Below are positions 2,692 through 39,749 of a stretch of DNA of 39,749 nt, piece after piece. Positions within the stretch are counted from its first letter, which is position 1; each line of letters starts with the position of its first letter. Position numbers and translations under genes: made by a program. Under the pieces are notes generated by a model, which worked only from the letters and a program-made list of their open reading frames with translations, searched no databases and was not told where the DNA came from. The stretch is taken from the IMG/VR virus record IMGVR_UViG_3300034010_000168, positions 1-39,749 of that record; one strand, given 5' to 3'. Source of the stretch: a virus.

Positions 2692-3085
2692 CCAATGGTG
2701 TTCGAAGTAAAGTCTTGCGCAATGCTATGAATTGTTGCCCATAACTCGTCGTCGCCAGTTCATCAGTGCCTGACCCAGTCGTCTGTCCGTATGATCTTGA
2801 GAGTTCACCAACTGATTCAGACGTGACACCGCCGCCGTTTCCCCCTCTGCCTGCCGCCGTGATGAGGTGACAAGTGATGAGGACGTGCGCGAGTTTGAAT
2901 TTTCGCCCGAACTTTGTTTCATTGACGAATGACAGTCCGTATTCAATGAACAGGTTGATTCGTTCGTCGGTTTCGTTTTCGAGTTCTGCCGCGAACGCTT
3001 TGATGTCTTGTGGTGTGATCGGGTCCAACTTCGCCCCCTCATGGTTCAAAGGATAGGGCAGGTCACGCGCACGCGCAACCCGCAT
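2684..3085 (-). CDS. Head-tail connector protein, DUF4054-like
   Basis: 'FGRKFKLAHVLITCHLIT...GGVTSESVGELSRSY' matches the DUF4054 pattern. The true start is probably TTG at 3028, 5 nt after GAGGGGG. Confidence 0.6.
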   Translation of the reverse strand: MRVARARDLPYPLNHEGAKLDPITPQDIKAFAAELENETDERINLFIEYGLSFVNETKFGRKFKLAHVLITCHLITAAGRGGNGGGVTSESVGELSRSYGQTTGSGTDELATTSYGQQFIALRKTLLRTPLVV

Positions 3086-3099
3086 GATTGAAAACCAGA

Positions 3100-3489
3100 C
3101 TATTCAGCCGAGGTTTCCTCTGCCTTTGTTTCGTCTCGATAGACGATTGTTTCAAGTTCTTTGATTTGTTTCTTGATGGCCGCCACAACTGGTTTTCGTT
3201 TTTCAGTTTTTAGCATTTCCTCAAGCGTTGGAACAAGCACCGTTTGCTGAACCAACTCGATGGCCTTGGCAGGTGCCATGTCTGCAAGCAACTTGGCTGC
3301 AACTTTGTCCCCTGATTTTTCCGAGTCCTCAATCACTTCGATCATGCCCTCATCAAGGTATATTTTGACGATTGGGTGTGATTTCACTTTGTCCCAATCA
3401 GATTTCAGAATGTGTGTGTTCAGTCCTGGAATGAGTTTCACCCCATCGCCAGCCTCAAAAATGTTTGCTTGGTTGTATTTTAAAAGCAT
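3100..3489 (-). CDS. Hypothetical protein (129 aa)
   Basis: ATG at 3487..3489 follows AAGGGGGACGCA. The longer track ORF (to 3549) would start inside the terminator stem, so I shortened it. Confidence 0.7.
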   Translation of the reverse strand: MLLKYNQANIFEAGDGVKLIPGLNTHILKSDWDKVKSHPIVKIYLDEGMIEVIEDSEKSGDKVAAKLLADMAPAKAIELVQQTVLVPTLEEMLKTEKRKPVVAAIKKQIKELETIVYRDETKAEETSAE

Positions 3490-3512
3490 TGCGTCCCCCT
3501 TATGTTGTGCCA

Positions 3513-3553
3513 ACAGAAAAACAAAAAACCCATGCCGAGTCAACGACATGGGT
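3513..3553 (-). terminator. Rho-independent terminator just downstream of the major capsid gene
   Basis: In the minus-strand RNA, ACCCAUGUCG / CGGCAUGGGU form a 10-bp stem with one G-U pair and a 6-nt loop. The stem is followed directly by UUUUUUGUUUUUCUG. Confidence 0.75.
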
Positions 3554-3579
3554 CTTGATGCTTTGAATATACTGACCGA

Positions 3580-4506
3580 CTAGATGCCGTCTGCGAATGC
3601 AACCGACAATGGATAGTAAATCAGAACGCCGCCGATTCTCGAATGGCAAGGAACAACAAACTCAAGGTTTCTTGATTGTGGTTCGAATTGTTCGAAATCT
3701 TGCGGAATCTCAAGCGTCAAATGATCAGGTGATTTTTTGTAAACCATCATTCTATTTGTGCCGCCTGCGCCTGCACCTTGCAATTCATTCACCCATTCAA
3801 CTTGCTTGATATAAGGTGACTGCTCAAGGAACAAGTCCAGGATTGATTTGCCATCGCCAGTTGTTGACCATGGTGTTGATTTCAACAAGTTGAATTGAGT
3901 CACTGGCAACAACATTGTGTCAGCTTGCTCAACTGCCCTTGTGTTTTCAACAACAAAGTTTGAAACTCTGTGAAGGTCACGCAAGATTTGTGCAGGTGTT
4001 TTGGTTGCGAATGTGGTTGTTGAACCAGTTCCATCGGCTGCAAGTGTGATTGAGCTAATGTTTGGATGATTCAAGAACCCCAAGATTCCGTGTGCCGCAG
4101 AACCGAAAAATGCAATGCTGTTTTCAATTTGCATGATTGCGCGTTTTGCTGCATTTGCACGACGCTGTTCAAGCGGTTTGCCTGCCATCTTTGCAGCGCG
4201 AATTTCTTGCACGTTGTAACCATAACTTGCACCCAATGAACGAACAACCGAAATGAACTCTTTGCCCCTGACATCGGCGCGAGGAATATCATCAGCATAA
4301 GATGCGATGATTTTCGCCATTCCGACTTGGTCGAATTGTTCATACTTGATTGTTTCTGCGCCAGGTCCTGCTTCAGAGGAAACAGGAATCAAGGCACGCG
4401 CCTTTAATTCTGCATACTTTACGTCATAGCTTTTGGCCTTGACGTGTTCAAGCTGCCGTCCAAAAAAGATGCTTTCGTCTGCATCTAAGTGAATAAATTT
4501 AGTCAT
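3580..4506 (-). CDS. Major capsid protein (DUF2184 / encapsulin-like family)
   Basis: 308 aa. The N-terminus 'DESIFFGRQLEHVKAKSYDVKYAELKARALIPV' and the gene order after DUF2213 and the cement protein are typical of the family. SD is TAGGGGGAACAG. A strong terminator follows. Confidence 0.85.
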   Translation of the reverse strand: MTKFIHLDADESIFFGRQLEHVKAKSYDVKYAELKARALIPVSSEAGPGAETIKYEQFDQVGMAKIIASYADDIPRADVRGKEFISVVRSLGASYGYNVQEIRAAKMAGKPLEQRRANAAKRAIMQIENSIAFFGSAAHGILGFLNHPNISSITLAADGTGSTTTFATKTPAQILRDLHRVSNFVVENTRAVEQADTMLLPVTQFNLLKSTPWSTTGDGKSILDLFLEQSPYIKQVEWVNELQGAGAGGTNRMMVYKKSPDHLTLEIPQDFEQFEPQSRNLEFVVPCHSRIGGVLIYYPLSVAFADGI

Positions 4507-4518
4507 CTGTTCCCCCTA

Positions 4519-5007
4519 TTAAAGATCAATTTCCAACAATGCCAGACCTGCGCCAGTTGTGCTTGAAAGCCATTTTGCATTTGGCAAAACCGCTGTTTCT
4601 GAAGCAACCGCCGCACCTCTGAACCCACCACGTTGACCAACACCTGCATAACGAACGTGAACATCTGATGTCCCTCGCGTCACGGCGTTTTCAACTTGAA
4701 CCCAAACGCGTCCTTTTTTCAGAACATTCACCGCAGAGTTTGGCGCATACTGTGGCAAACCTGACGCTGAACTTTCCATTGCTTGATGTGCAATTGCAAC
4801 ACCAACCAATTTTTTCACGTCTGTCACGTCACCTGCCGCCGCTGGCAATGCGATTTGATTCGCGCCTGCGCCGATTGCCGTCATCACACCAAATGGAATC
4901 GCTGCCGAAAGGTTTTCACCTGTGACAACATCCTGAACCATTCCTGCATCTGCCAACATTCCTGCGAATGCAACAGCCTGGTCAACTGCATAACTTAATT
5001 GAGACAT
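4519..5007 (-). CDS. Head decoration or cement-like protein (DUF2190 / Gp24-like)
   Basis: 162 aa, rich in Gly and Ala. It has the motifs 'IPFGV' and 'VLKKGRVWVQV' and lies between the scaffold/protease and capsid genes. Confidence 0.55.
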   Translation of the reverse strand: MSQLSYAVDQAVAFAGMLADAGMVQDVVTGENLSAAIPFGVMTAIGAGANQIALPAAAGDVTDVKKLVGVAIAHQAMESSASGLPQYAPNSAVNVLKKGRVWVQVENAVTRGTSDVHVRYAGVGQRGGFRGAAVASETAVLPNAKWLSSTTGAGLALLEIDL

Positions 5008-5008
5008 A

Positions 5009-6232
5009 CTATTCCCCCTTTTTCTTTGCCGCGAAAACGTGCGTTTTGTGTGCCTGCATAGACTCTTCGATCATCTTTTTTCGTGCCTCATCAGCACTGG
5101 CAGGAACACCGTCATTTCGAGTCTGTTTGTTTTTTCCAAAATCATCAACTGTTTTTTCTGTGCCCTCGACCATTTCAGCGATTGCATCAAATCGTGCCTG
5201 AACGTATTCAGCCGAACGACCCTCAAAGTTGAAATCTGGATATTTTTTTGAAATCACTTTTTTCATGATGTCCATGTCCAGGTCAGCATCGAACTTGGTT
5301 TCTTTGCCAAGAACGTCGCCAGCAACTTTTTCAAGCTTGATTCTTTTTTGAACCAAAGCGTGAACGGTTTTTTCGTCCGCAGAATCTTTGCGAACTTTCA
5401 ACTGTTCCATGGCCTCATCATACTTTGCTTGCAAGGCGTCTTTTTCCTTTTTCGCAGAGTCGAGTTCAACCTCTAGTTCAGCCTTTTTTTCTTCTTTGCC
5501 GCCCATGTCCTTTTTCATTTCGGCCATGTCCATTTCCATTTGTTGCAACTTTGCCATTTCAGCCTCAATTGCAGCTTTCATTTCTGGCGACACTTCAAAT
5601 TCTTTGCCGCCAATCATGAGTTTGTCCATTTTTCCCCCTTTGGTGTCTTGGTCCTCAAAAAGAATTGCATCATCCGAGTCAAGTTTCAAGCGAACTTGCG
5701 GACCTGCCCGACCTTTCGCAACCAATGCCACATGATTATATTGAATGTTTCGTTGAATCACATCATAAGGTTCGCCCTGAAATACACCTGGCGTTTCATC
5801 AAGTTCTGATTCATAGCCGCACGAAAGTTCATGCTTGCCGCCCTCAACATCTTGAATCGCAGAGTTGTCGTGAATGGTCAGAGTCGTTTCAAGAAACTGA
5901 TCATTCTTTTTCACAAGTTCCCCAGTCCAACCCACAGCCAATTGTTTGGCATTGTCTGCATTCACAAGCACTGTCGGGTGATCATTGGTCACAGGAATCA
6001 GTTTCAAAGTCTCAAGGGACTTTGGTGAAAACACCTCATCAGGGGGTCGCAGTTCCCTGACAATCGAACCGTCTGGTTTCTTGTATTTGAAAACCCCGAC
6101 CCTTGTCACAAAAGCAGGCAAACGAACAAACCCTTGCGGTGTTTTTTCGATCTTTGACAATTGTGTGCGGTCAAAACGACGAACCGTTTTCATCAATGCA
6201 ATGGTGAACTTTGTTTTGTCTGCGTGCAACAA
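5009..6232 (-). CDS. Prohead protease/scaffold protein (DUF2213) with a C-terminal K/E-rich coiled coil
   Basis: 'PQGFVRLPAFVTRVGVFKYKKPDGSIVRELRPPDEVF...IPVTNDHP' is the DUF2213 signature. The start is uncertain: TTG at 6232 or ATG at 6193. Confidence 0.75.
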   Translation of the reverse strand: MLHADKTKFTIALMKTVRRFDRTQLSKIEKTPQGFVRLPAFVTRVGVFKYKKPDGSIVRELRPPDEVFSPKSLETLKLIPVTNDHPTVLVNADNAKQLAVGWTGELVKKNDQFLETTLTIHDNSAIQDVEGGKHELSCGYESELDETPGVFQGEPYDVIQRNIQYNHVALVAKGRAGPQVRLKLDSDDAILFEDQDTKGGKMDKLMIGGKEFEVSPEMKAAIEAEMAKLQQMEMDMAEMKKDMGGKEEKKAELEVELDSAKKEKDALQAKYDEAMEQLKVRKDSADEKTVHALVQKRIKLEKVAGDVLGKETKFDADLDMDIMKKVISKKYPDFNFEGRSAEYVQARFDAIAEMVEGTEKTVDDFGKNKQTRNDGVPASADEARKKMIEESMQAHKTHVFAAKKKGE

Positions 6233-6255
6233 GTTTCTGCCAGCACGACTTTGGA

Positions 6256-7104
6256 CTATTCGGCCAAGAACTCATCGAGAACAGGTTCTGCGGTGCATCG
6301 ACATTGAATAGCCTCGCCTGGATGACCTTCGCTTGGGGGTGTGTCCCATCGGTGTTCTGTTCCCTCAAGGCGTTCGTGCGCGTCACGCACACGTTCGTCA
6401 AGTGATGTGCGCCAAATGTATTTGGTCACGCCGAGTTCACCTTGTCGAAGTTGATTCAGTTGTCCGTTGATCTTGTTGACCTGGTCCCTTGCAATCAGAT
6501 TGGCCCTTGATTCTGAAACGCCAAAGCGTTCCTCAATTTGGTCCGAAATGTTTTCCCATCTAGTCCCAGACGATAGTCCTGAATAGACACGTTCCTCGAT
6601 TTCGGCAAAGGTCCTTTGTGACAAGGACTCAATCAGGTTCACATTCTGCGCGACAAAAAGTTGCAGTTCGCCTTGCAGGTATTTTTCAGCAAAGATGACA
6701 TCAACGCCAGCCACACGTTTGAAACCTTTTTCCAAAGCCTCGCGGTTGAACTCACTGACTGCCATGCCTTTGCGCATTGCTATCCTTGCCAGTTCGGTCG
6801 CCGTGTATTCCTGCGAAAACATTCTTTTGATTTGGTCCATGAGTCGCCTTGCGGTTGACATCGCGTCGCCTGCGTCATCCTGCCTGACCTCAACTGGTCT
6901 TGCCTCGACTGCGGTTGCCACAATTTTCGGCAGTTGCGAAACTAGAACTTGATTTGTGATGGCTTTCATCTTGCGAACGATTGCCAAAAGGTCGCGTTGA
7001 TAGGACCTTTCGAGTTCCTTGGGTGCGCGTGCGCGAGGCCATCGACTGACCCTGCGCTTGGACTGCAATGACTGCCGCAACAAACGGCGTGACCGTTCAC
7101 TCAT
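6256..7104 (-). CDS. Head morphogenesis protein, SPP1 gp7 / Mu F family
   Basis: 'WRTSLDERVRDAHERLEG...HPGEAIQCRCTAEPV' is the MuF signature. TGATG coupling links it to the portal gene. Confidence 0.85.
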   Translation of the reverse strand: MSERSRRLLRQSLQSKRRVSRWPRARAPKELERSYQRDLLAIVRKMKAITNQVLVSQLPKIVATAVEARPVEVRQDDAGDAMSTARRLMDQIKRMFSQEYTATELARIAMRKGMAVSEFNREALEKGFKRVAGVDVIFAEKYLQGELQLFVAQNVNLIESLSQRTFAEIEERVYSGLSSGTRWENISDQIEERFGVSESRANLIARDQVNKINGQLNQLRQGELGVTKYIWRTSLDERVRDAHERLEGTEHRWDTPPSEGHPGEAIQCRCTAEPVLDEFLAE

Positions 7105-9455
7105 CAGCCTCTGACCCCTGATGCAACTGCGGGTTTCGCTGTGCTGAACTTGTCGCCAGTTTCAACATTCGACTTGATGCCGTCTGTGTTGCTATCCTTC
7201 GAAACCTTTTCGCCCTTTTGATTGAATAGGGCTAAACCGCTTGGGTCATGCATTAGATATTCAATGCCATTGTCGCCGCCCACAACAAAACCCTTGATTC
7301 CGTTTTTAACCATTTCCTCGTATGCTTCTTTTTTTGACAGACCTTTGCCCTTCATTAGTGCGCGTTCAAGTTGAATGTTTGGTTGCGAATTAAACAATGA
7401 TGAAACGTGTTGTTCAACGCCCATTTTTTGGGCAGCTTCACGAACTGCGTTCGGGTTTTGTTCAACATTCACGATTGAACCTTTTTCTGCAAAAGCTGTG
7501 TAAACTTGACCAGTTTTTTCGCCAATGCCGTTTTTTGAAACGTACTGTTCAGAATAACTTTTATCAGGTGAAAACGATGTCCCAACGCCACGCTTTTGAC
7601 CATAGTTTGTTGAAAGGTCTTTTTCGTTTCCAACAACTGATTCAAAGCCTTTCAGGTTGTTGTCTAAAGAACCGTGAAACAATGGGTTGTCGATGTCATA
7701 CTGTTCAGACAATGATTCCAAATCAGATTCTGAAATGTTTGTTTCGTTTGAAACTTTTTTTGTGTTCCCTGACCCAGGCTTTCGTCCTGCACCTTCGCGT
7801 GCGCCGCCCCAGGTTCCCTCATCAAGTTCAATCTGCATTTCCTTGAATGCGCCGTCAAACTTTGGGGAACCGCCGCCGCCCTCGCCTGGCAATGGTGTGC
7901 CTGATGGTTTGAACCCTTTGCCTGCCAATCCCATGACTTTTTCTGCCTCATCACTTGTCATGTTGAATGCCTTTTGCAGCATGAACAGACCTGATTCGCG
8001 TGGCAAGTTGCCTGTTGCAACTGACTGAACAATTTCAATCATGCTTGTCACCTGTGCGCCGTTCAGTGCCTGTTGCTGCACGTTTTCAGCTTGTGGTGCA
8101 GGCTGTGCGCCCTCGACCATTTCGCCAGTGATTGGTTCAGCTTGTCGCAAAGTTTCCTCGATTTGGGTTTCCATGCTGTATTTGCCGCCAGCAAAACGAG
8201 ACAATGACACCTCATCAGCGTCAACAACACCGTTTTGAATGTATATCTGGTCAGTTTCTGCCTGTGTTTTGCGAAGTGTTGCCGTTTCCATGTCGTCGAG
8301 TTGATACAACGGCTTGAATGTCAGGTCCAGACCCTCGGCTGCAATGCCAAGTTCTGCCGCAATCATCTTGAAAACCTGCAAAAGCTTGGGTTTCAAATAG
8401 GTTTCTTGCTGGCTTGCAATGTAGTCATACCAGTTGTCCTGTTCATGTCTGCCAGTGCCGCCCATTCCTGTGGGTGATTCACCCAAAAGGACAGTGCGTG
8501 GGATATTCGTGCCCCCAACAAGTCGGTTTTCAACCTTGCCAAGCAATTCAGAAACGCCAGCAACTGACCCAATCTTGTATTCGAAGTCCTCGCCCTCGGC
8601 ATCAATCACCACAGCACGCGCAACCGATCTTGAAAGGTTCGCAATTTCCATTCGCTTGATGATCAAGTCGTCATTGTCAGCCGCAATTTGGTCGGCCAAG
8701 TTCTTGATTTTGAACACGGCAATTCGAAAGTCCTGCAATGTTGAACTGGCTGCGTCATGACTCAACTGATAGTTTCGAATCGAGTTCTGCAAGTTGTTCA
8801 GGACCGAGTCGCCCCAATAGTTGTTTTGCTGCATGAACCGCAAAGGCAAAGTTTTGCCGTCGAATCTGATGATTCGTGTTGCGTGAATCTTTGTCAGGAC
8901 CTCAACCGTCGAACCTGAAACCCTTGGTTGGTATGAATACACCCGAGGGGTCAAATAGTTTGGGGACAAAAGATTAAAGTCCATGTCCTCATGTTGCGCG
9001 TAAAGTTCCCACATCGAAACCGCATTCACCCCACGCAGGAATGCATTGGGTCTCATCGGTTCTTGCAAGTTTCGCATTTCATCGGTCAGCATGATCAAGC
9101 CTGCGCCGCCGTACCGTCGCGCCATTTTCCAAGCGTGTGCGAACTTTGGCAGAATCTGCATTTCAGAGGCTTTCATCAAAAGCTTTTTGGCCTGTTCCTT
9201 GTCGATTCCCTCAAGTTCGAACCCTTCGCGCAAGGACTCATCAACCAAGGCGTCAACAATCTTGGCCGCCATTTCGTCGGCTGCATACAAGTTGTCAGCG
9301 TCAACCTCTGGTAATCGTTCCCAATTGACTTCGGCAGACAAACGCTTGTCCATTCCCTTGACCCCAAGTCCAGTCAGGACGTTGGCCCAGCCATCCATGT
9401 TCACGCGCTTTTGAATCAATGCTTTTGATTGTTTTGAAATTTGTTTCTTTGCCAT
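7104..9455 (-). CDS. Portal protein (DUF1073/HI1409-like, about aa 1-515) fused to a Gly-rich linker and a C-terminal extension of about 230 aa with PARP-like ADP-ribosyltransferase motifs
   Basis: 783 aa. The N-terminus 'DGWANVLTGLGVKGMDKRLS' is portal-like, and the gene lies between terL and MuF. The C-terminal motifs 'PLFHGS', 'GVGTSFSPDKSYSEQY' and 'GIEYLMHD' are discussed in the findings. Confidence 0.85.
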   Translation of the reverse strand: MAKKQISKQSKALIQKRVNMDGWANVLTGLGVKGMDKRLSAEVNWERLPEVDADNLYAADEMAAKIVDALVDESLREGFELEGIDKEQAKKLLMKASEMQILPKFAHAWKMARRYGGAGLIMLTDEMRNLQEPMRPNAFLRGVNAVSMWELYAQHEDMDFNLLSPNYLTPRVYSYQPRVSGSTVEVLTKIHATRIIRFDGKTLPLRFMQQNNYWGDSVLNNLQNSIRNYQLSHDAASSTLQDFRIAVFKIKNLADQIAADNDDLIIKRMEIANLSRSVARAVVIDAEGEDFEYKIGSVAGVSELLGKVENRLVGGTNIPRTVLLGESPTGMGGTGRHEQDNWYDYIASQQETYLKPKLLQVFKMIAAELGIAAEGLDLTFKPLYQLDDMETATLRKTQAETDQIYIQNGVVDADEVSLSRFAGGKYSMETQIEETLRQAEPITGEMVEGAQPAPQAENVQQQALNGAQVTSMIEIVQSVATGNLPRESGLFMLQKAFNMTSDEAEKVMGLAGKGFKPSGTPLPGEGGGGSPKFDGAFKEMQIELDEGTWGGAREGAGRKPGSGNTKKVSNETNISESDLESLSEQYDIDNPLFHGSLDNNLKGFESVVGNEKDLSTNYGQKRGVGTSFSPDKSYSEQYVSKNGIGEKTGQVYTAFAEKGSIVNVEQNPNAVREAAQKMGVEQHVSSLFNSQPNIQLERALMKGKGLSKKEAYEEMVKNGIKGFVVGGDNGIEYLMHDPSGLALFNQKGEKVSKDSNTDGIKSNVETGDKFSTAKPAVASGVRG

Positions 9456-9471: not shown

Positions 9472-10935
9472 TCACATTCTGGTCATCTTCGCCAGTGTTG
9501 CTGATTTTTCCCTGAAACGCAAGATGGCTTGAGTTGAGGCGTCAACACAATCGTCATGACGTGCTGTGGGAAAACCAACAAGTTCGTTGATGTAGTCATG
9601 AACCCAAGGTGCAATCGAAGGGTCTGGCAAAATGATGTTGCCTGCCTCAAAGTCTGGACTGACTGCGTTGAGTCTTGCTTCTTTTGAATCGGTCGGTGAA
9701 ATGCCGACAATCCCTGAAACCTGTCCCTTGAGTGAATCAATCACGGCCTCGCCATTGGCCTTGGCCTCGACAAGTTTCAGATGCGCTTTCGGCCATTTGG
9801 CAGATAGACTTTTGACTGCGGCGACTGTTTCGGTGAAACCGCCTTGAAACCTTGCTTGATCAAGCATCCATTTTTCTGCCCCAATCCTGCCCCAAACCTG
9901 TCCCACGACGTAATCAGAACGGTCGCCGCCCTTGAAGGTCATGTCCCATGACTGGATGATTTCGTCAAACCTCGCTGGCATTTCACGCCAGAACTTGTTC
10001 AGCCATTGCCGTTTGATCAATGAACCCTCGCGTGCGACTGGTTCCTGTTGATATAAGCTGTTCCAAACCCTTGCGCCCTCGTTTTGTGTGGTCACATTCT
10101 TGATGATCATGGTTTCATTCAGGTCGTATTTGTTCGGCCAAAGGACTTCACCTTGATTTCGTGGGTCGCCAGGTGTTGGTTCTGATTCCAAGACCATGGG
10201 GAACTTGACGATTTCCCAATCCATTGACGGTTCACCGCGCTTTTTGGCGTCCGCGTCCTGTTTCAAAAGTCTGCCTGCCAAGTCGTCCTCATGCCATCGG
10301 GTCATAACCAAAGCCATGGAACAGTTTTTTTCACGGCGTGTGAACAGTGTGGACAAATACCAGTCCCAGACCTTTTGCCTGTATGTTGGCGAGTCGGCCT
10401 CACTCTGATTCTTAACGACATCATCAATCAGGATGTAGTTTGCGCCCATGCCTGTGATACCGCCGCCCACGCCTGCGCACCTGTAAACGCCCCCATGTTC
10501 GACGATTTCGAAAATGTCGTTGTTGCGCAGCCAGTTCCCTTGCGCTGCCGTTCGCACGTTTTCCCCTGAAAGCAAGGTGTTTGGAAAAATGTCCCTGTAT
10601 TCCTGCGCGTCGATGATTCGCTGAACATCACGGTTCAACATCTGTGCAAGGTCCGCGCTGTACGATGTCGAAATGATTCGTGCCTTTGGATTGATGCCGA
10701 AAATGTATGCAGGCAACCGTCTTGAAATCAGTTCTGATTTTCCCATTCGTGGCGGCATGAACACCATGATGTTGCGAACCTTTTTGTGTGCGAACTGTTC
10801 AAGTTTTTTGCCCATCAAGACATGGTGCCAGTTGAAATCATAGTCCTTTTTGGTCCATTTGGTGAACGCAAGGAAATTGCCAGCCAGTGCCTTGGCCTTG
10901 ATTGTTTGCCATGCCTTGGCCTGTGCCTCATTCAT
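9472..10935 (-). CDS. terL: Terminase large subunit
   Basis: Walker A 'PPRMGKSE', Walker B 'YILIDD' and nuclease motif 'ARHDDCVDA'. I chose the ATG at 10935 behind GAGGGTTCAGAGG, which overlaps the terS stop by 8 nt. Confidence 0.9.
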   Translation of the reverse strand: MNEAQAKAWQTIKAKALAGNFLAFTKWTKKDYDFNWHHVLMGKKLEQFAHKKVRNIMVFMPPRMGKSELISRRLPAYIFGINPKARIISTSYSADLAQMLNRDVQRIIDAQEYRDIFPNTLLSGENVRTAAQGNWLRNNDIFEIVEHGGVYRCAGVGGGITGMGANYILIDDVVKNQSEADSPTYRQKVWDWYLSTLFTRREKNCSMALVMTRWHEDDLAGRLLKQDADAKKRGEPSMDWEIVKFPMVLESEPTPGDPRNQGEVLWPNKYDLNETMIIKNVTTQNEGARVWNSLYQQEPVAREGSLIKRQWLNKFWREMPARFDEIIQSWDMTFKGGDRSDYVVGQVWGRIGAEKWMLDQARFQGGFTETVAAVKSLSAKWPKAHLKLVEAKANGEAVIDSLKGQVSGIVGISPTDSKEARLNAVSPDFEAGNIILPDPSIAPWVHDYINELVGFPTARHDDCVDASTQAILRFREKSATLAKMTRM

Positions 10936-11539
10936 CCTCTGAACCCTCGATGGCCTCAAGCGCATTGGTCAAGTCTTTGAGTTCTGCAATCACCTCTGAT
11001 GTTGGTTTGACCTCGACCTCTGCCTGTTTCGAATCGTCCTCAACTGTCAGCTTGGCTTTTGGACCCCAACGCAAATTGTGACGGCGTTCAAGTCGCCAGA
11101 TGACTGCCCGAAAGTCTGGCATGATTTCAGACCGCTTGACGATGGGGTTCCCCATAGCATCGCGTTCAATCTTGCCTGTGATTGGGTCACGTTCAAACTC
11201 TTTTGGCCTGCCCTCTGCGAAGGTCTCAACCCTTATGATGTCCCTGACTTCTGACTCTGCAATGGCCTGATGTACTTTTGCCAAAAATTCACCGCATCTT
11301 GACGCAGGGTCCTCTTTTGCTATCCTGCACCATTCCATGAAGGTTGTGCGCGAGACCCCCGAGGCATAAACGGCAACGTCAAAGGCTGCCCCAATCTTGA
11401 TCATGTTGATGACTTTGTCCTCAAGTTCTTGGTCGATTTCGATTTTGGGTCTGCCTGCTTTTTTGTCAGGCTTTGGACCATAGACCGAAAGTGATCTGAC
11501 TGGCGGTTCACCTTTGAGTTTCCTGTATTTTCCAGGCAT
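10928..11539 (-). CDS. terS: Terminase small subunit
   Basis: HTH-like 'GVSRTTFMEWCRIAKE' and 'VIWRLERRHNLRWG', directly upstream of terL. The ATG at 11539 lies 5 nt after the stop of the previous gene, with GAGGAA as SD. Confidence 0.75.
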   Translation of the reverse strand: MPGKYRKLKGEPPVRSLSVYGPKPDKKAGRPKIEIDQELEDKVINMIKIGAAFDVAVYASGVSRTTFMEWCRIAKEDPASRCGEFLAKVHQAIAESEVRDIIRVETFAEGRPKEFERDPITGKIERDAMGNPIVKRSEIMPDFRAVIWRLERRHNLRWGPKAKLTVEDDSKQAEVEVKPTSEVIAELKDLTNALEAIEGSEDE

Positions 11540-11543
11540 GGGT

Positions 11544-11705
11544 CTATTCCTCAACGAAAGCGTCTGCAATGTGCTTTGTGATTTTCATTTCCCTTGGTGC
11601 GACAATAGCAATGACGACCCTGTTCTTGCCTTTGGACTCGACCAGGTGAATTTCAACGAGGTTGTGAATGTTGACAATGTCCCCAAGCTTGATTTCGGTC
11701 AGCAT
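11544..11705 (-). CDS. 53-aa CsrA/RsmA-like small protein (putative RNA-binding translational regulator)
   Basis: 'MLTEIKLGDIVNIHNLVEIHLVESKGKNRVVIAIVAPREMKITKH' aligns by eye to CsrA '[48 protein letters not shown]'. Its ATG overlaps the rusA stop (ATGCTGA). Confidence 0.45.
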   Translation of the reverse strand: MLTEIKLGDIVNIHNLVEIHLVESKGKNRVVIAIVAPREMKITKHIADAFVEE

Positions 11706-15377: not shown

Positions 15378-16079
15378 GTGTCTCATTTCGAAATGGTTGA
15401 TGTTGAACGTGTTGTGCCAGCGCATTGGAACTATAAGACCGACGACGATGCCAAACAAAAGGACCTTGTCGAACGCATCAAAAAGCGTGGTCAGGTTGCG
15501 ACCCTAGTCGTGCGCGAACTTGAAAATGGAATGCTTGAAAGTGTTGACGGTTCCCATCGCATCCGAGCATTCAAAGAATTGGGAATCAAAAAAATCATGG
15601 TGTGCAACCTTGGCCGCATTGACCAAACCACAGCCGAACAGATTGGCATTGAAATCAATGAGTTCAGATTCGACGCCGACCCATTGAAACTTGATTCTTT
15701 GTTGAAACGTGTGGGACTAAAACCCCTTGACGTGGCACCGCCAAAGAAACTTGACCTTGCACCCTCTGCCGCGCTGATGCCTGATGTAAAGCCAATCATG
15801 CTTGACCCTGGACCAAAGCCAAAGACCGAGGACGCAAGACCGTCAAAGGCACCAATTGGCAAGGTGCCCGACGTGCAGCACTATGAAACGAACATGACCA
15901 TGTTGCAGTTCAGGGTTGAACTCGATGTTGCAAGGCAGTTTAGGGAACAATTGGACCGTGTAAAATCTGCAATGTTTCCCAACGAATCGACCAAGGATGT
16001 CAAAGACACGCTGCCGATTCAAGCCATCTGCCAGGCCTTGGCCGAGTTGCCAAAATCAAAATTTGAAAAACGCAGTTGA
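15378..16079 (+). CDS. ParB-like nuclease domain protein with a Pro-rich linker
   Basis: 'LVVRELENGMLESVDGSHRIRAFKELGIKKI' matches the ParB/Srx DG.HR motif. GTG start 5 nt after AAGGGGG. Confidence 0.7.
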   Translation: MSHFEMVDVERVVPAHWNYKTDDDAKQKDLVERIKKRGQVATLVVRELENGMLESVDGSHRIRAFKELGIKKIMVCNLGRIDQTTAEQIGIEINEFRFDADPLKLDSLLKRVGLKPLDVAPPKKLDLAPSAALMPDVKPIMLDPGPKPKTEDARPSKAPIGKVPDVQHYETNMTMLQFRVELDVARQFREQLDRVKSAMFPNESTKDVKDTLPIQAICQALAELPKSKFEKRS

Positions 16080-17101: not shown

Positions 17102-17886
17102 CAAACCTTGAGGCAATAAAAAAAATTCTGATTGTTGAGTTTGCTTATTACTCGATTGCGACAAACCCAGCACAAATCAAACTTTGGGCAGAGGAAATGC
17201 AGGACCTTGATGCAAGGGCACTGGAAAAAACCCTCAAAGATTTTCGCAAAGAATCTGGCAGAACTAAACCGCCAATGCCTGGCGACATTCGAACAAGAAT
17301 TTTTTCGTTTCCTGATGGCAACGTGGCGTGGTCAACAGTCCAACAAAATCAGAAATCAATTCTTTGGACCGATGAAATGCGTCTGGCTTTTGGTGATGCC
17401 TATGCCTTGATTCAAGAAAACGACATGGTTGCCGCACGAATGGCGTTCTTGAAAGCATACGAGGAACGATGCAAAGAATCTGTTCGTCAAAACAAACCGC
17501 CAGTTTGGAAAATTTCTTATGGTGAACAGCGCGACGATGACCAACTGAACAAACTTTTGATCGAAGGTGTGAACGAAAAAAAGATTTCCATTCAAACCGC
17601 CATGGCATACAGCCCCGATTTGACTTTAGACAACGCAGGAAACCTTTTGACCCATTCATCAAAACTGCTTTTGGAAACAAAGCAGGTTGAAAATAGTTCA
17701 TTGTCGGCAGAGGCCAAAGACAAAATGATTGCAGACATGATTGCGAGAATGGAACAACGAAAACTTGAAATTGAAAAAGAACGTGAACTGCAAAAAGAAA
17801 AAGAACGCCAAGAATGGAAACAAAAAAAAGAACAGGCAAAGGCTATGTTCGACGAATACCAAAGGGGAATGAATGAAAAAACTTAA
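17098..17886 (+). CDS. Helicase loader, SPP1 G39P-like N-terminal domain, with a K/E-rich C-terminal coiled coil
   Basis: 'AYYSIATNPAQIKLWAEEMQDLDARALEKTLKDFRKESGRTKPPMPGDIRTRI' resembles the G39P-family pattern. Its GTG start overlaps the upstream stop (GTGA). Confidence 0.5.
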   Translation: MTNLEAIKKILIVEFAYYSIATNPAQIKLWAEEMQDLDARALEKTLKDFRKESGRTKPPMPGDIRTRIFSFPDGNVAWSTVQQNQKSILWTDEMRLAFGDAYALIQENDMVAARMAFLKAYEERCKESVRQNKPPVWKISYGEQRDDDQLNKLLIEGVNEKKISIQTAMAYSPDLTLDNAGNLLTHSSKLLLETKQVENSSLSAEAKDKMIADMIARMEQRKLEIEKERELQKEKERQEWKQKKEQAKAMFDEYQRGMNEKT

Positions 17887-18553
17887 GACCACAAAAAATC
17901 AATTGCTTGAAATCATCGCAATGATGACCGAGGAACAATTTGACCAGTTCGCAAAAGAAAACAACCGCGAAATCAATCAGCTTGTTTTGTGGGGTGAAGG
18001 TGTTGAGTATGAAGCGAAATCAACATTTCGAATCGCGCACGAAATCATGAAACAGGTTGTGTGTGTTGAGGAACTGGCAGCCTATTGCGCGGACGAAAAC
18101 GCAGAACTTGCGGCACGCGAACAGCTTGCAATCGAACAACACAAACTGAACACGATGTTTGACGACCTTGAAAACAAAGCCGATTCGTTTGGTGCAGTTG
18201 TCACGATGCTTGAAAAAGATTGCGACAAATACGAGGCATTGGCGAACATCTGCAAAGCCAAAGTGAAACGCACCGAAAACCAAATTGCGACGATCAAGAA
18301 AAACATCACGAACATCATGCAAGGTTTGGAACTTGAAAAAATTAAAGGGACCTTTTTCACCCTATCGGTTGGCAAGCCAACGCGGTCAGTCGTGTTGAAC
18401 GAAATGACTGATGAGGAAATTCACGGTTTACCAAAAGAGTTCCTGCGCGTCAAAACCGAAATCGACAAAACCGCTGTAAAGGCTGCACTGGACGATGGGC
18501 AGTCACTGGCATGGGCAGCCTTAATTGAACGCCGTTCGTTGCGTATAACTTGA
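17873..18553 (+). CDS. Siphovirus Gp157-family protein (recombination-module accessory)
   Basis: The N-terminus 'NQLLEIIAMMTEEQFDQF' and the C-terminus 'FTLSVGKPTRSVVL...EFLRVKTEIDKTAVKAALDDGQSLAWAALIERRSLRIT' fit the Gp157 pattern. Confidence 0.6.
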   Translation: MKKLKTTKNQLLEIIAMMTEEQFDQFAKENNREINQLVLWGEGVEYEAKSTFRIAHEIMKQVVCVEELAAYCADENAELAAREQLAIEQHKLNTMFDDLENKADSFGAVVTMLEKDCDKYEALANICKAKVKRTENQIATIKKNITNIMQGLELEKIKGTFFTLSVGKPTRSVVLNEMTDEEIHGLPKEFLRVKTEIDKTAVKAALDDGQSLAWAALIERRSLRIT

Positions 18554-20279: not shown

Positions 20280-20858
20280 ATGATTCTTTTGCAACAAATC
20301 AGACTTTTTGGACTTCGCTTGGTCCGACCAATCATCAAGTTCATTGATGGGTTTCATCTGCCGCACACAAACATTGATGACGATGCCTTTGAAATCTTGC
20401 TGCGCGACCTGCAAGACGGCGACATTCTGCTTTCACGCAACAACTGGAATCTGACCAACCTGACCATTCCAGGTTTCTGGAAACACGCCGCAATATATTG
20501 CCAAGGCTATGCAATCGAGGCAGTCGGTGACGGTGTTCGAAAGGAACATTTCGCAAAATGGCTGTTCACAAAGGACCATGTCATAGTTTTGCGCCCCACG
20601 TTCTGCCATGAACTGGTTCGCTCTGCCGCAGGTGTGGTTGCTGCCAGCATGATCGGCAAACCTTATGACCTTGATTTTTCGCCAGGGGTCGAGGCGTTCT
20701 ATTGTTCTGAACTTGTGTATTGGTCTTATGATGAGGCTATGGGGAATGAATCACCATTCAAACCACGCACAATCATGGGTGTTGAAACAATCGCACCTGA
20801 TGACTTTGTCCGCGCAAGATCAAAGTTTCAAATCATTTTCATGCACAAAGGACGCTAA
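20280..20858 (+). CDS. Permuted papain-fold amidase/peptidase, YiiX/YaeF (C92, DUF830) family
   Basis: 'GDILLSRNN...FWKHAAIY...IEAVGDGV' carries the His, followed by 'GKPYDLDF...FYCSELVYWSY' with the Cys, which is the permuted order typical of YiiX. SD is GAGGGGGTGAC. Confidence 0.65.
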   Translation: MILLQQIRLFGLRLVRPIIKFIDGFHLPHTNIDDDAFEILLRDLQDGDILLSRNNWNLTNLTIPGFWKHAAIYCQGYAIEAVGDGVRKEHFAKWLFTKDHVIVLRPTFCHELVRSAAGVVAASMIGKPYDLDFSPGVEAFYCSELVYWSYDEAMGNESPFKPRTIMGVETIAPDDFVRARSKFQIIFMHKGR

Positions 20859-39596: not shown

Positions 39597-39749
39597 TTAT
39601 ACCTGAACGACGCCTTGAATTTCGACCGCATGGATAGCACCTGCCAAGTTTGCTTGGAATGCTACATCAGGCAACAAGCGTGCTGCCCTGTCCGCAGGTG
39701 CAACGTCTGCAACCTTTGGAACCTCAACACTTGGTGCAGGGTCAGCGGC
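39597..39749 (-). CDS. 3' end of the tail sheath gene. The stop TAA is at 39597..39599; 39609..39749 duplicates 1..141.
   Basis: The sheath frame continued through the repeat reads ...[13 protein letters not shown] followed by a stop. Confidence 0.85.
39609..39749. repeat. Right copy of the 141-bp terminal direct repeat
   Basis: Identical to 1..141. Confidence 0.95.

Follow-up and report, generated by a model that had tools for sequence, protein, structure and literature searches.

A putative ADP-ribosyltransferase cargo domain at the C-terminus of a phage portal protein

Introduction

For several kinds of ADP-ribosyltransferase (ART) associated with phage heads, namely Alt of phage T4, the ARTs fused to MuF head proteins and those of polyvalent proteins, a common role has been proposed: the enzyme is made late, is assembled into the head and ADP-ribosylates host macromolecules at the start of the next infection (PMC5512222, PMC9503650). 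The ART domain found in polyvalent proteins of phages and conjugative elements, ART-PolyVal, bears a His on strand 1, a Tyr on strand 2 and an Asp on strand 5, and the family is predicted to modify proteins; in phage polyvalent proteins, GNAT domains typically adjoin the ART domain (Iyer et al. 2017, PMC5512222). Published fusions join portal proteins to PBECR, 2H, InPase or Nudix domains and MuF proteins to ARTs (Alt/VIP2, N4-ART), and a fusion between an ART and a portal is mentioned in the literature only generically. It has also been suggested that head-linked ARTs possibly counter immunity aimed at the portal or the terminase, and the ART clades are described as including NADases and nicotinamide adenine dinucleotide (NAD+) phosphorylases (Iyer et al. 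2022, PMC9503650). Here we have analysed a viral DNA of 39,749 nucleotides (IMG/VR record IMGVR_UViG_3300034010_000168, positions 1 to 39,749; the whole stretch is referred to below as the window) in which the portal gene extends, beyond its conserved part, into a Gly-rich linker and a domain that resembles ARTs.

A preliminary description of this sequence had taken the 783-amino-acid (aa) product of the gene for a portal fused to a PARP-like ART domain. At a probability of roughly 0.55, we favour a reading in which the gene encodes a portal with a C-terminal cargo, a divergent ART of the H-Y-[E/D] clade (PARP, diphtheria toxin (DT), ART-PolyVal) that would be a probable NAD+-dependent modifier of host macromolecules. 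Judging from sequence comparisons and predicted structures, the ART fold of the domain is probable, and we lean, on balance, towards the domain being an active NAD+-using enzyme.

Results

The portal protein carries a rare C-terminal domain

The product of the 783-aa open reading frame (ORF) is a Phage_portal_3 portal, with a Pfam match above the curated threshold (251.4 bits, the cut-off being 33.8; E 1.4e-74; residues 55-404). It also matched PHROG 146 'portal protein' (E 6e-96) and, among the solved structures of the Protein Data Bank (PDB), the related portals 9jlf (E 9e-33), Pam3 gp3 (8hds, E 2e-24) and E217 gp19 (E 3e-11). Alignment with relatives placed the end of the conserved portal module at about residues 518-520, and P0002, the nearest of the relatives that lack an extension (63% identity), ends some 20 residues past this module, in agreement with the preliminary description, which had let the portal part end near residue 515. 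The region highlighted there, positions 7107-7910, corresponds to residues 516-783. Gly-rich stretches are located at residues 523-533 and 550-563, and the ART-like domain follows (Table 1). The fusion is genuine and does not stem from faulty assembly, since the identical 783-aa protein was present on 7 contigs (NCBI, JGI, Logan) and the same architecture recurs in the divergent portals P0121 and P0123.

An exhaustive phmmer search over 1.84 billion cluster-representative proteins yielded no more than three further clusters with the domain (E 1.7e-53 to 4.2e-40), and the extension is thus not a common crown domain of portals. P0121 is a portal fragment and P0123 a 769-aa portal, about 25% identical in its portal part, and both bear the domain at the C-terminus. 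The third homologue, P0122, is a 1659-aa polyvalent phage protein in which the domain occupies residues 80-281, with DUF5661 and GNAT acetyltransferase domains after it. Identity is 42-53% among the four domains, whereas it reaches only 25-34% among the portals bearing them; that the domains are more alike than their carriers points to mobility of the domain or to a strong constraint upon it. Alignment of the four sequences (A1) revealed 59 invariant positions, including those of F-H-G, G-x-G-x-S-x-S-P, S-Y...Y, Q-P-N-x-Q-x-E, G-I-K-G-F and E-x-L-x-H-D-P-S.

With regard to P0122, a NUDIX gene lies directly after it on its contig (L001, the two genes spanning 2890-8267), on which a Cpn60-like chaperonin and a PF04860 portal are also encoded. 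By tblastn, the DUF5661 segment of P0122 finds a counterpart in a 'DUF2213 domain-containing protein' from Vibrio phage VPs20, and the search of P0122 against phages gave only short DUF5661 and kinase-like matches.

The window domain itself had no match in Pfam or PHROGs, and scans of all four family members against NCBIfam and PHROGs gave noise only. No relative of the domain was found by phmmer in PDB, and neither megablast nor tblastn of the domain against GenBank phage and plasmid records produced a match. Pattern scans retrieved only the identical sequence from IMG/VR (L003) and no relative from GTDB genomes or JGI metagenomes. A word-indexed protein search missed even the self protein when it was queried with the domain or with alignment A1, and found it with the full-length query; a null result of this search is unreliable for such a short and divergent domain, given that the exhaustive phmmer search did find three homologous clusters.

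The candidate active-site residues are invariant in the family

Three motifs in the order of the PARP core had been pointed out within the extension, and the Gly-rich linker, the motifs, their codon positions and their spacing are all exactly as first described. PLFHGS corresponds to residues 591-596, GVGTSFSPDKSYSEQY to residues 623-638 and GIEYLMHD to residues 730-737, Ser627 being located 33 residues after His594 and Glu732 a further 105 residues past Ser627. The PARP1 strings that had been quoted for comparison are also correct, as the typed PARP1 catalytic domain coincides residue for residue with PDB 4xhu. His594 and Glu732, the two residues at the centre of that comparison, are invariant in the four family members, and so are Ser627 and Tyr638; the remark that the first Tyr of the triad is replaced by Ser applies, in consequence, to the whole family.

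The helical insert that precedes the Glu732 strand contains the motif S-Q-P-N-[IL]-Q-[LI]-E (residues 690-697, positions 7365-7388), in which Q, P, N, Q and E do not vary among the four members and the first position is Ser in three of them and Ile in P0123. Neither PARP nor ART-PolyVal has an equivalent of this motif. Relaxed hhalign settings placed the PARP N-E-Y-I strand on these residues, and Glu697 might conceivably have a catalytic role.

The N-terminal half of the domain resembles PARP above chance

Among curated models, Pfam PARP matched two of the four members, with 14.7 bits (E 0.023) and 13.4 bits (E 0.055) against a cut-off of 26.7. At E 0.023 it ranked second to an unrelated family (E 0.01), and at E 0.055 it ranked best. 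The family profile, when searched against PDB, recovered PARP15 catalytic domains (E 0.1-0.18), with FHG[ST] aligned on LFHGT and GvGvSFsP..SYS on GKGTYFAVDASYS.

Profile comparison was carried out with hhalign against a PARP profile composed of PARP1, TNKS2, PARP10 and PARP14, four sequences that were checked against PDB. The four-sequence family alignment reached a score of 33.2 (E 3e-4, probability 39-46%), and the match covers the N-terminal half of the domain, that is, the His motif, the G-x-G strand, the SxSxxY (Ser/Tyr) helix and the next strand. Against the same profile, 60 column shuffles scored 13.1±2.0 (maximum 19.4), the reversed alignment 15.6 and portal decoys 12-17, so that the score of the family stands about 10 standard deviations (SD) above the shuffles. 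As a positive control, ART-PolyVal (from roseophage and crAss-like proteins) scored 22.2. For calibration, the comparison of PARP1 with tankyrase, which covers the same His-to-Tyr segment, gave no better than E 1e-4. From these comparisons, the similarity of the N-terminal half of the domain to PARP is above chance.

Several results of the same searches weigh against an ART. Every curated model remained below its threshold (PARP, 13-15 bits against 26.7), and the hhalign probability was under 50%. Compared with a hand-aligned PARP C-terminal block, the Glu732 strand scored 10.3, with shuffles at 7.6±2.0; at the Glu strand the match is at the level of the controls. Deletion of the helical insert left the PARP alignment still short of the Glu strand, and hhalign against PARP1 alone was not significant. 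With a profile of four ART-PolyVal domains, picked by Pfam and tblastn, the family scored 13.7 in hhalign, which amounts to no match; a score of 19.5 for the C-terminal half against ART-PolyVal was dropped as evidence, the reversed control being higher (21.3). Finally, the triad Tyr, which is aromatic in PARP, DT and ART-PolyVal, corresponds to the invariant Ser627, a replacement that could entail altered or lost NAD+ binding.

The best BFVD matches of two predicted models are ART-PolyVal proteins

Two AlphaFold models, made from different family members, had mean predicted local distance difference test (pLDDT) values of 56 and 65, and both are weak because only four family sequences exist. 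In Foldseek searches of BFVD, the top match of both of these low-confidence models was 'PolyVal ADP-Ribosyltransferase' A0A8S5RYQ5 (E 7.7e-3 and 8.3e-4, probability 0.96), with other ART-PolyVal entries and large polyvalent proteins further down the lists. Past the Tyr helix, the predicted order of elements, strand-strand-(helices)-strand-strand-strand, is the same as in PARP. On the opposite side, pLDDT is below 50 in both models from the His motif to the Tyr helix, the C-terminal half being mainly at 62-92; the Foldseek template modelling scores (TM-scores) to ART-PolyVal, at 0.25-0.27, are low; and the search of model 1 against PDB returned noise, without an ART and with an anti-CRISPR protein on top (E 0.14).

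None of the profile and structure searches assigned the domain with confidence to an unrelated family, and the best matches (Pfam PARP, PARP15, hhalign PARP and, in Foldseek, ART-PolyVal) are ARTs. The reading given in the preliminary description is in this sense supported, short of proof. The lines of support for an ART converge, each of them being weak individually, and at motif level Glu732 is the candidate catalytic acid. We infer that the domain would adopt a complete ART fold, use NAD+ and rely on Glu732 for catalysis.

A different explanation of the same data would be a non-enzymatic accessory inside the head or at the portal, for instance a DNA-end organiser, a plug or an assembly aid, whose ART motifs are due to chance or mark an inactivated relic. 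We consider this unlikely. It accords with the fact that each ART match lies below curated significance, with the Ser that replaces the triad Tyr, with the poor models and a PDB fold search lacking ARTs, and with the many relatives whose C-terminal extensions contain no recognisable enzyme domain. It could also appeal to the profile search against PDB, where unrelated BMC-H and CBS domains obtained E-values comparable to those of the ARTs; these matches were rejected, since the BMC-H value (E 0.009) sums two tandem copies that are insignificant on their own (single-domain E >10 each), and a single-domain BMC-H protein, CcmK2, gave E 0.92. An accessory of this kind would be hard to reconcile, however, with four independent kinds of search converging on one superfamily, with a hhalign score so far above the shuffles and stronger than that of the true ART-versus-ART control, with the presence, among the invariant residues, of those aligned to the NAD-binding positions of PARP, and with the occurrence of the domain in an enzyme-rich polyvalent protein beside a NUDIX gene.

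The C-terminus of related portals is a cassette site

About 25 of the 126 scored proteins, some of which are near-identical copies of the query, have at least 150 aa beyond the portal core, and among the 120 closest portals the fraction is about one fifth. A NUDIX domain is found at the equivalent C-terminal position in at least seven related portals (P0088, P0095, P0106, P0111, P0114, P0116 and P0118), and a ParB-like D-G-H-H-R module in P0003 and P0006 (precomputed Pfam match and sequence); other relatives carry unassigned modules.

Short motifs recur at the junctions. DGG[PEK]GSG is repeated in several relatives between the portal core and the variable module; GGAREGAGRK.GSG, which lies in the 7767-7808 region of the window, is common to the window protein and P0030, and unrelated domains follow it; HPRxxxG[KE]F is present in P0106, P0121 and P0123. 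The relatives with recurring junction motifs are P0003, P0006, P0030, P0059, P0071, P0084, P0106, P0114, P0121 and P0123. These motifs might function as hinges, as recombination joints or as protease sites. Because different modules occupy one position and the Gly-rich junctions recur, the C-terminus of this portal clade is, from its sequences, a cassette site, that is, a swappable effector slot. The window protein shows the pattern of head-packaged effector fusions: a module on a head protein, with alternative modules at the same site in relatives.

Two known occupants of the cassette, Nudix and the ART-like domain, fall within NAD/ADP-ribose biochemistry, Nudix enzymes being hydrolases of ADP-ribose and related nucleotides. 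A domain of ART fold might, in this setting, degrade NAD+ or act on small molecules, as an NADase, a phosphorylase or an enzyme that makes or modifies ADP-ribose derivatives, in the same NAD/ADP-ribose pathway as Nudix. Such a function would match the Nudix domains in the same slot of related portals and the Nudix encoded beside P0122, the unusual His-Ser-Glu site, and the NADases and NAD+ phosphorylases known among ART clades (Iyer et al. 2022). We regard it as very unlikely, since the best sequence similarity of the domain is to PARP-type, protein-modifying ARTs and the polyvalent-protein ART family that provides the best fold matches is predicted to modify proteins.

The fusion gene is located in a head module

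According to Pfam and PHROGs, the head module has the order small terminase (TerS), large terminase (TerL), portal, MuF, protease, cement and capsid (Table 1). The MuF protein of this phage is separate and unfused. The sequence TGATGA at 7101-7106 makes the MuF start ATG overlap the portal stop codon, an overlap that suggests translational coupling. The DUF2213 protein is a putative head maturation protease by its family name only.

An exact 141-nt direct repeat is present at the window ends (1-141 and 39609-39749), and the window is probably a complete phage genome of 39,608 bp, with either a circular assembly or terminal redundancy. A search for tRNA genes in the window found none. A plus-strand block encodes a ParB_N-domain protein (15378-16079), a Sipho_Gp157-like protein (17873-18553) and a Peptidase_C92 (YaeF/YiiX-type) amidase (20280-20858). 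Several ORFs neighbouring these genes had no Pfam match, and the ten ORFs that were scanned included no further NAD/ADP-ribose-related gene.

Table 1. Positions of the portal fusion gene, its parts and candidate residues, and the other genes of the head module in the window
Feature	Position	Strand	Basis or remark
Portal-linker-ART-like fusion gene, 783 aa	7104..9455	(-)	ORF list; stop codon 7104-7106
Portal core, residues 55-404 (Phage_portal_3 / DUF1073)	8244..9293	(-)	Pfam PF06381, PHROG 146
Conserved portal C-terminal module, residues 405-520, crown/barrel-equivalent; ends ...AGKGFKPS	7896..8243	(-)	Alignment with relatives
Gly-rich linker, residues 521-572; holds PGEGGGGSPKF and GGAREGAGRKPGSG (7767-7808)	7740..7895	(-)	
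ART-like domain, residues 573-755 (~180 aa)	7191..7739	(-)	Homologous to P0121, P0122 and P0123; exhaustive phmmer
Candidate NAD-binding His of strand 1, His594 (codon CAC), F-H-G-S	7674..7676	(-)	Invariant; on PARP catalytic His (HMMER PARP15, hhalign)
Ser627 codon, G-x-G-x-S-[FL]-S-P, at PARP/DT triad Tyr position	7575..7577	(-)	Invariant; aligned to PARP1 Y896 (hhalign)
Tyr638 codon, putative equivalent of PARP1 Tyr907 (second nicotinamide-stacking Tyr)	7542..7544	(-)	Invariant; hhalign
Helical insert, residues 667-719, three predicted helices	7299..7457	(-)	AlphaFold, pLDDT mostly 83-92, one block 65-70
Candidate catalytic acid, Glu732 (codon GAA), G-[IK]-E-[YF]-L-x-H-D-P-S, start of predicted beta-strand	7260..7262	(-)	Invariant; AlphaFold
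C-terminal tail, residues 756-783, not conserved	7107..7190	(-)	Without counterpart in homologues; pLDDT 25-31
MuF-like head morphogenesis protein	6256..7104	(-)	Pfam Phage_Mu_F E 1.9e-22; PHROG 324
DUF2213 protein, coiled-coil scaffold-like tail	5009..6232	(-)	Pfam DUF2213 E 1.1e-45; PHROG 530 'head maturation protease' E 1.4e-101
Large terminase, directly upstream of portal gene	9472..10965	(-)	Pfam Terminase_6N and Terminase_6C; PHROG 38
Small terminase	10928-11569		Head module
Cement protein	4519-5007		Head module
Major head protein	3580-4506		Head module

Discussion

The domain described here is nearer to PARP in sequence (hhalign scores of 33.2 against PARP and 13.7 against ART-PolyVal) and nearer to ART-PolyVal in setting, and it belongs to neither of the two Pfam families. 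With the PARP catalytic domain (PF00644) it shares the strand with F/L-H-G-[ST] and, about 33 residues further on, that with G-x-G-x-[aromatic position]-F-[AS], as well as the S-x-S-x-x-Y helix and the next strand, all of which align, and its invariant E-[YF]-[IL], with which a later strand begins, is similar to the N-E-Y-I-V of PARP. It departs from PARP in remaining below the Pfam threshold, in having Ser for the triad Tyr, in an alignment of the Glu that is not significant and in an insert of about 53 residues and three helices before the last strands, where PARP has only a short loop. The window family also lacks the regulatory or acceptor loop of PARP, and the window domain comes from a phage and is attached to a portal.

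ART-PolyVal (PF18760; Tox-ART-HYD2 clade), for its part, gave the best structural matches of both low-confidence models, and resembles the window family in its setting, in virion-packaged multidomain proteins, and in the His and acid pattern at clade level; P0122 has the ART-plus-GNAT arrangement known for ART-PolyVal. However, the window family gave no Pfam match to it up to E 10 and no profile match. ART-PolyVal is of the H-Y-D type, with an aromatic residue on strand 2 and G-Y-D-G, whereas the window family has, by eye, Ser and G-I-K-G, and an acid of the ART-PolyVal type would in this family be Glu732 or Asp728 instead.

As for the carrier, the published portal-effector and MuF-ART fusions are similar to the window protein in placing an enzymatic domain, predicted to be packaged and delivered, on a head-assembly protein of a terminase-portal phage, and differ from it in that the ART-like family of the window is absent from the published list and that the MuF of the window carries no fusion. 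T4 Alt is likewise an ART carried in the capsid and a model for early host takeover by ADP-ribosylation, but it belongs to the R-S-E (Arg-Ser-Glu) clade and occurs as a free internal protein that has no covalent bond to the portal. It is directed to the capsid by a targeting sequence and cleaved by the gp21 protease.

In the mechanism that we propose, a flexible Gly-rich linker would join the cargo domain to the portal C-terminus. The candidate active site would be formed by His594, Ser627 (for the usual Tyr), Tyr638 and Glu732, with the three-helix insert placed before the last three strands. We take the crown and the barrel to be the C-terminal portion of the Pam3 portal, as in other solved portals. 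From the capsid inside outwards, the parts of the Pam3 portal are the barrel, the crown, the wing, the stem and the clip (PMC9942802). As portal C-termini face the capsid interior, each virion would hold twelve copies of the domain, tethered by their linkers inside the head at the portal and by the DNA end; the roughly 350 kDa of extra protein would account, on a rough estimate, for less than 1% of the packaged volume. By analogy with the role proposed for Alt, MuF-ART and polyvalent-protein ARTs, the domain would serve as an NAD+-dependent modifier of host macromolecules from the very start of infection. Proteolytic release from the portal, with ejection into the host, is conjectural, and release by the DUF2213 protease, as envisaged in the preliminary description, is pure conjecture.

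An ART that is not an injected effector and stays tethered at the portal vertex would instead modify, in the producing cell, host immune sensors directed at portal or terminase, or else DNA or head proteins during packaging or ejection. Consistent with this alternative, the portal fusion has been kept in three of the four known occurrences, across very divergent portals, and neither a protease site nor an internal start can be recognised in the fusion protein: no cleavage site can be named, and at Met541 an AAGGA lies only about one base 5′ of the ATG, a poor spacing on which we make no claim. It would also be in line with the suggestion by Iyer et al. (2022) that head-linked ARTs oppose portal- and terminase-directed immunity, and the atypical His-Ser-Glu site could mean a non-protein substrate. 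We nevertheless judge it distinctly improbable, since P0122 carries the domain without a portal, which indicates that it can work away from one, and the Nudix and ParB-like modules on sister portals fit a generic cargo slot better. In a more specific version, for which we see very little likelihood, the twelve tethered domains would act at the inner face of the portal, either ADP-ribosylating the passing phage DNA or its leading or trailing end, or modifying and so disarming the host immune sensors of portal or terminase. ADP-ribosylation of DNA during packaging would then be an anti-restriction mark and the unusual His-Ser-Glu site would reflect a non-canonical substrate. If this were true, the portal would possess a built-in catalytic activity, beyond that of a mere cargo carrier.

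Whichever way an ART-like cargo of the portal might act, head-packaged ARTs and portal-effector fusions are already known as predictions of comparative genomics, and current views are not overturned by the present case. The earlier impression that such an arrangement had not been described for a portal proved too strong, given that portal-effector fusions have been published and a portal-ART fusion has been mentioned generically (Iyer et al.). Our literature search found no experimental study of any portal-ART fusion. What is new is the ART-like family itself, which has no model in Pfam, PHROGs or NCBIfam and comprises four clusters only, together with its His-Ser-Glu candidate site, its helical insert and its marked preference for portal C-termini.

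If the cargo domain is active, it would represent an ART family not catalogued before, whose His-Ser-Glu site is unusual and which was found in only four clusters among about 1.8 billion representatives. Its location at the portal C-terminus in three of the four known occurrences would provide a fixed stoichiometry of twelve per virion, and the fusion may offer a compact model for the way in which phages load first-strike NAD+-dependent enzymes into the capsid. The portal clade as a whole is seen here as a modular carrier, in which Nudix, ParB-like and ART-like cassettes are placed behind conserved Gly-rich junctions.

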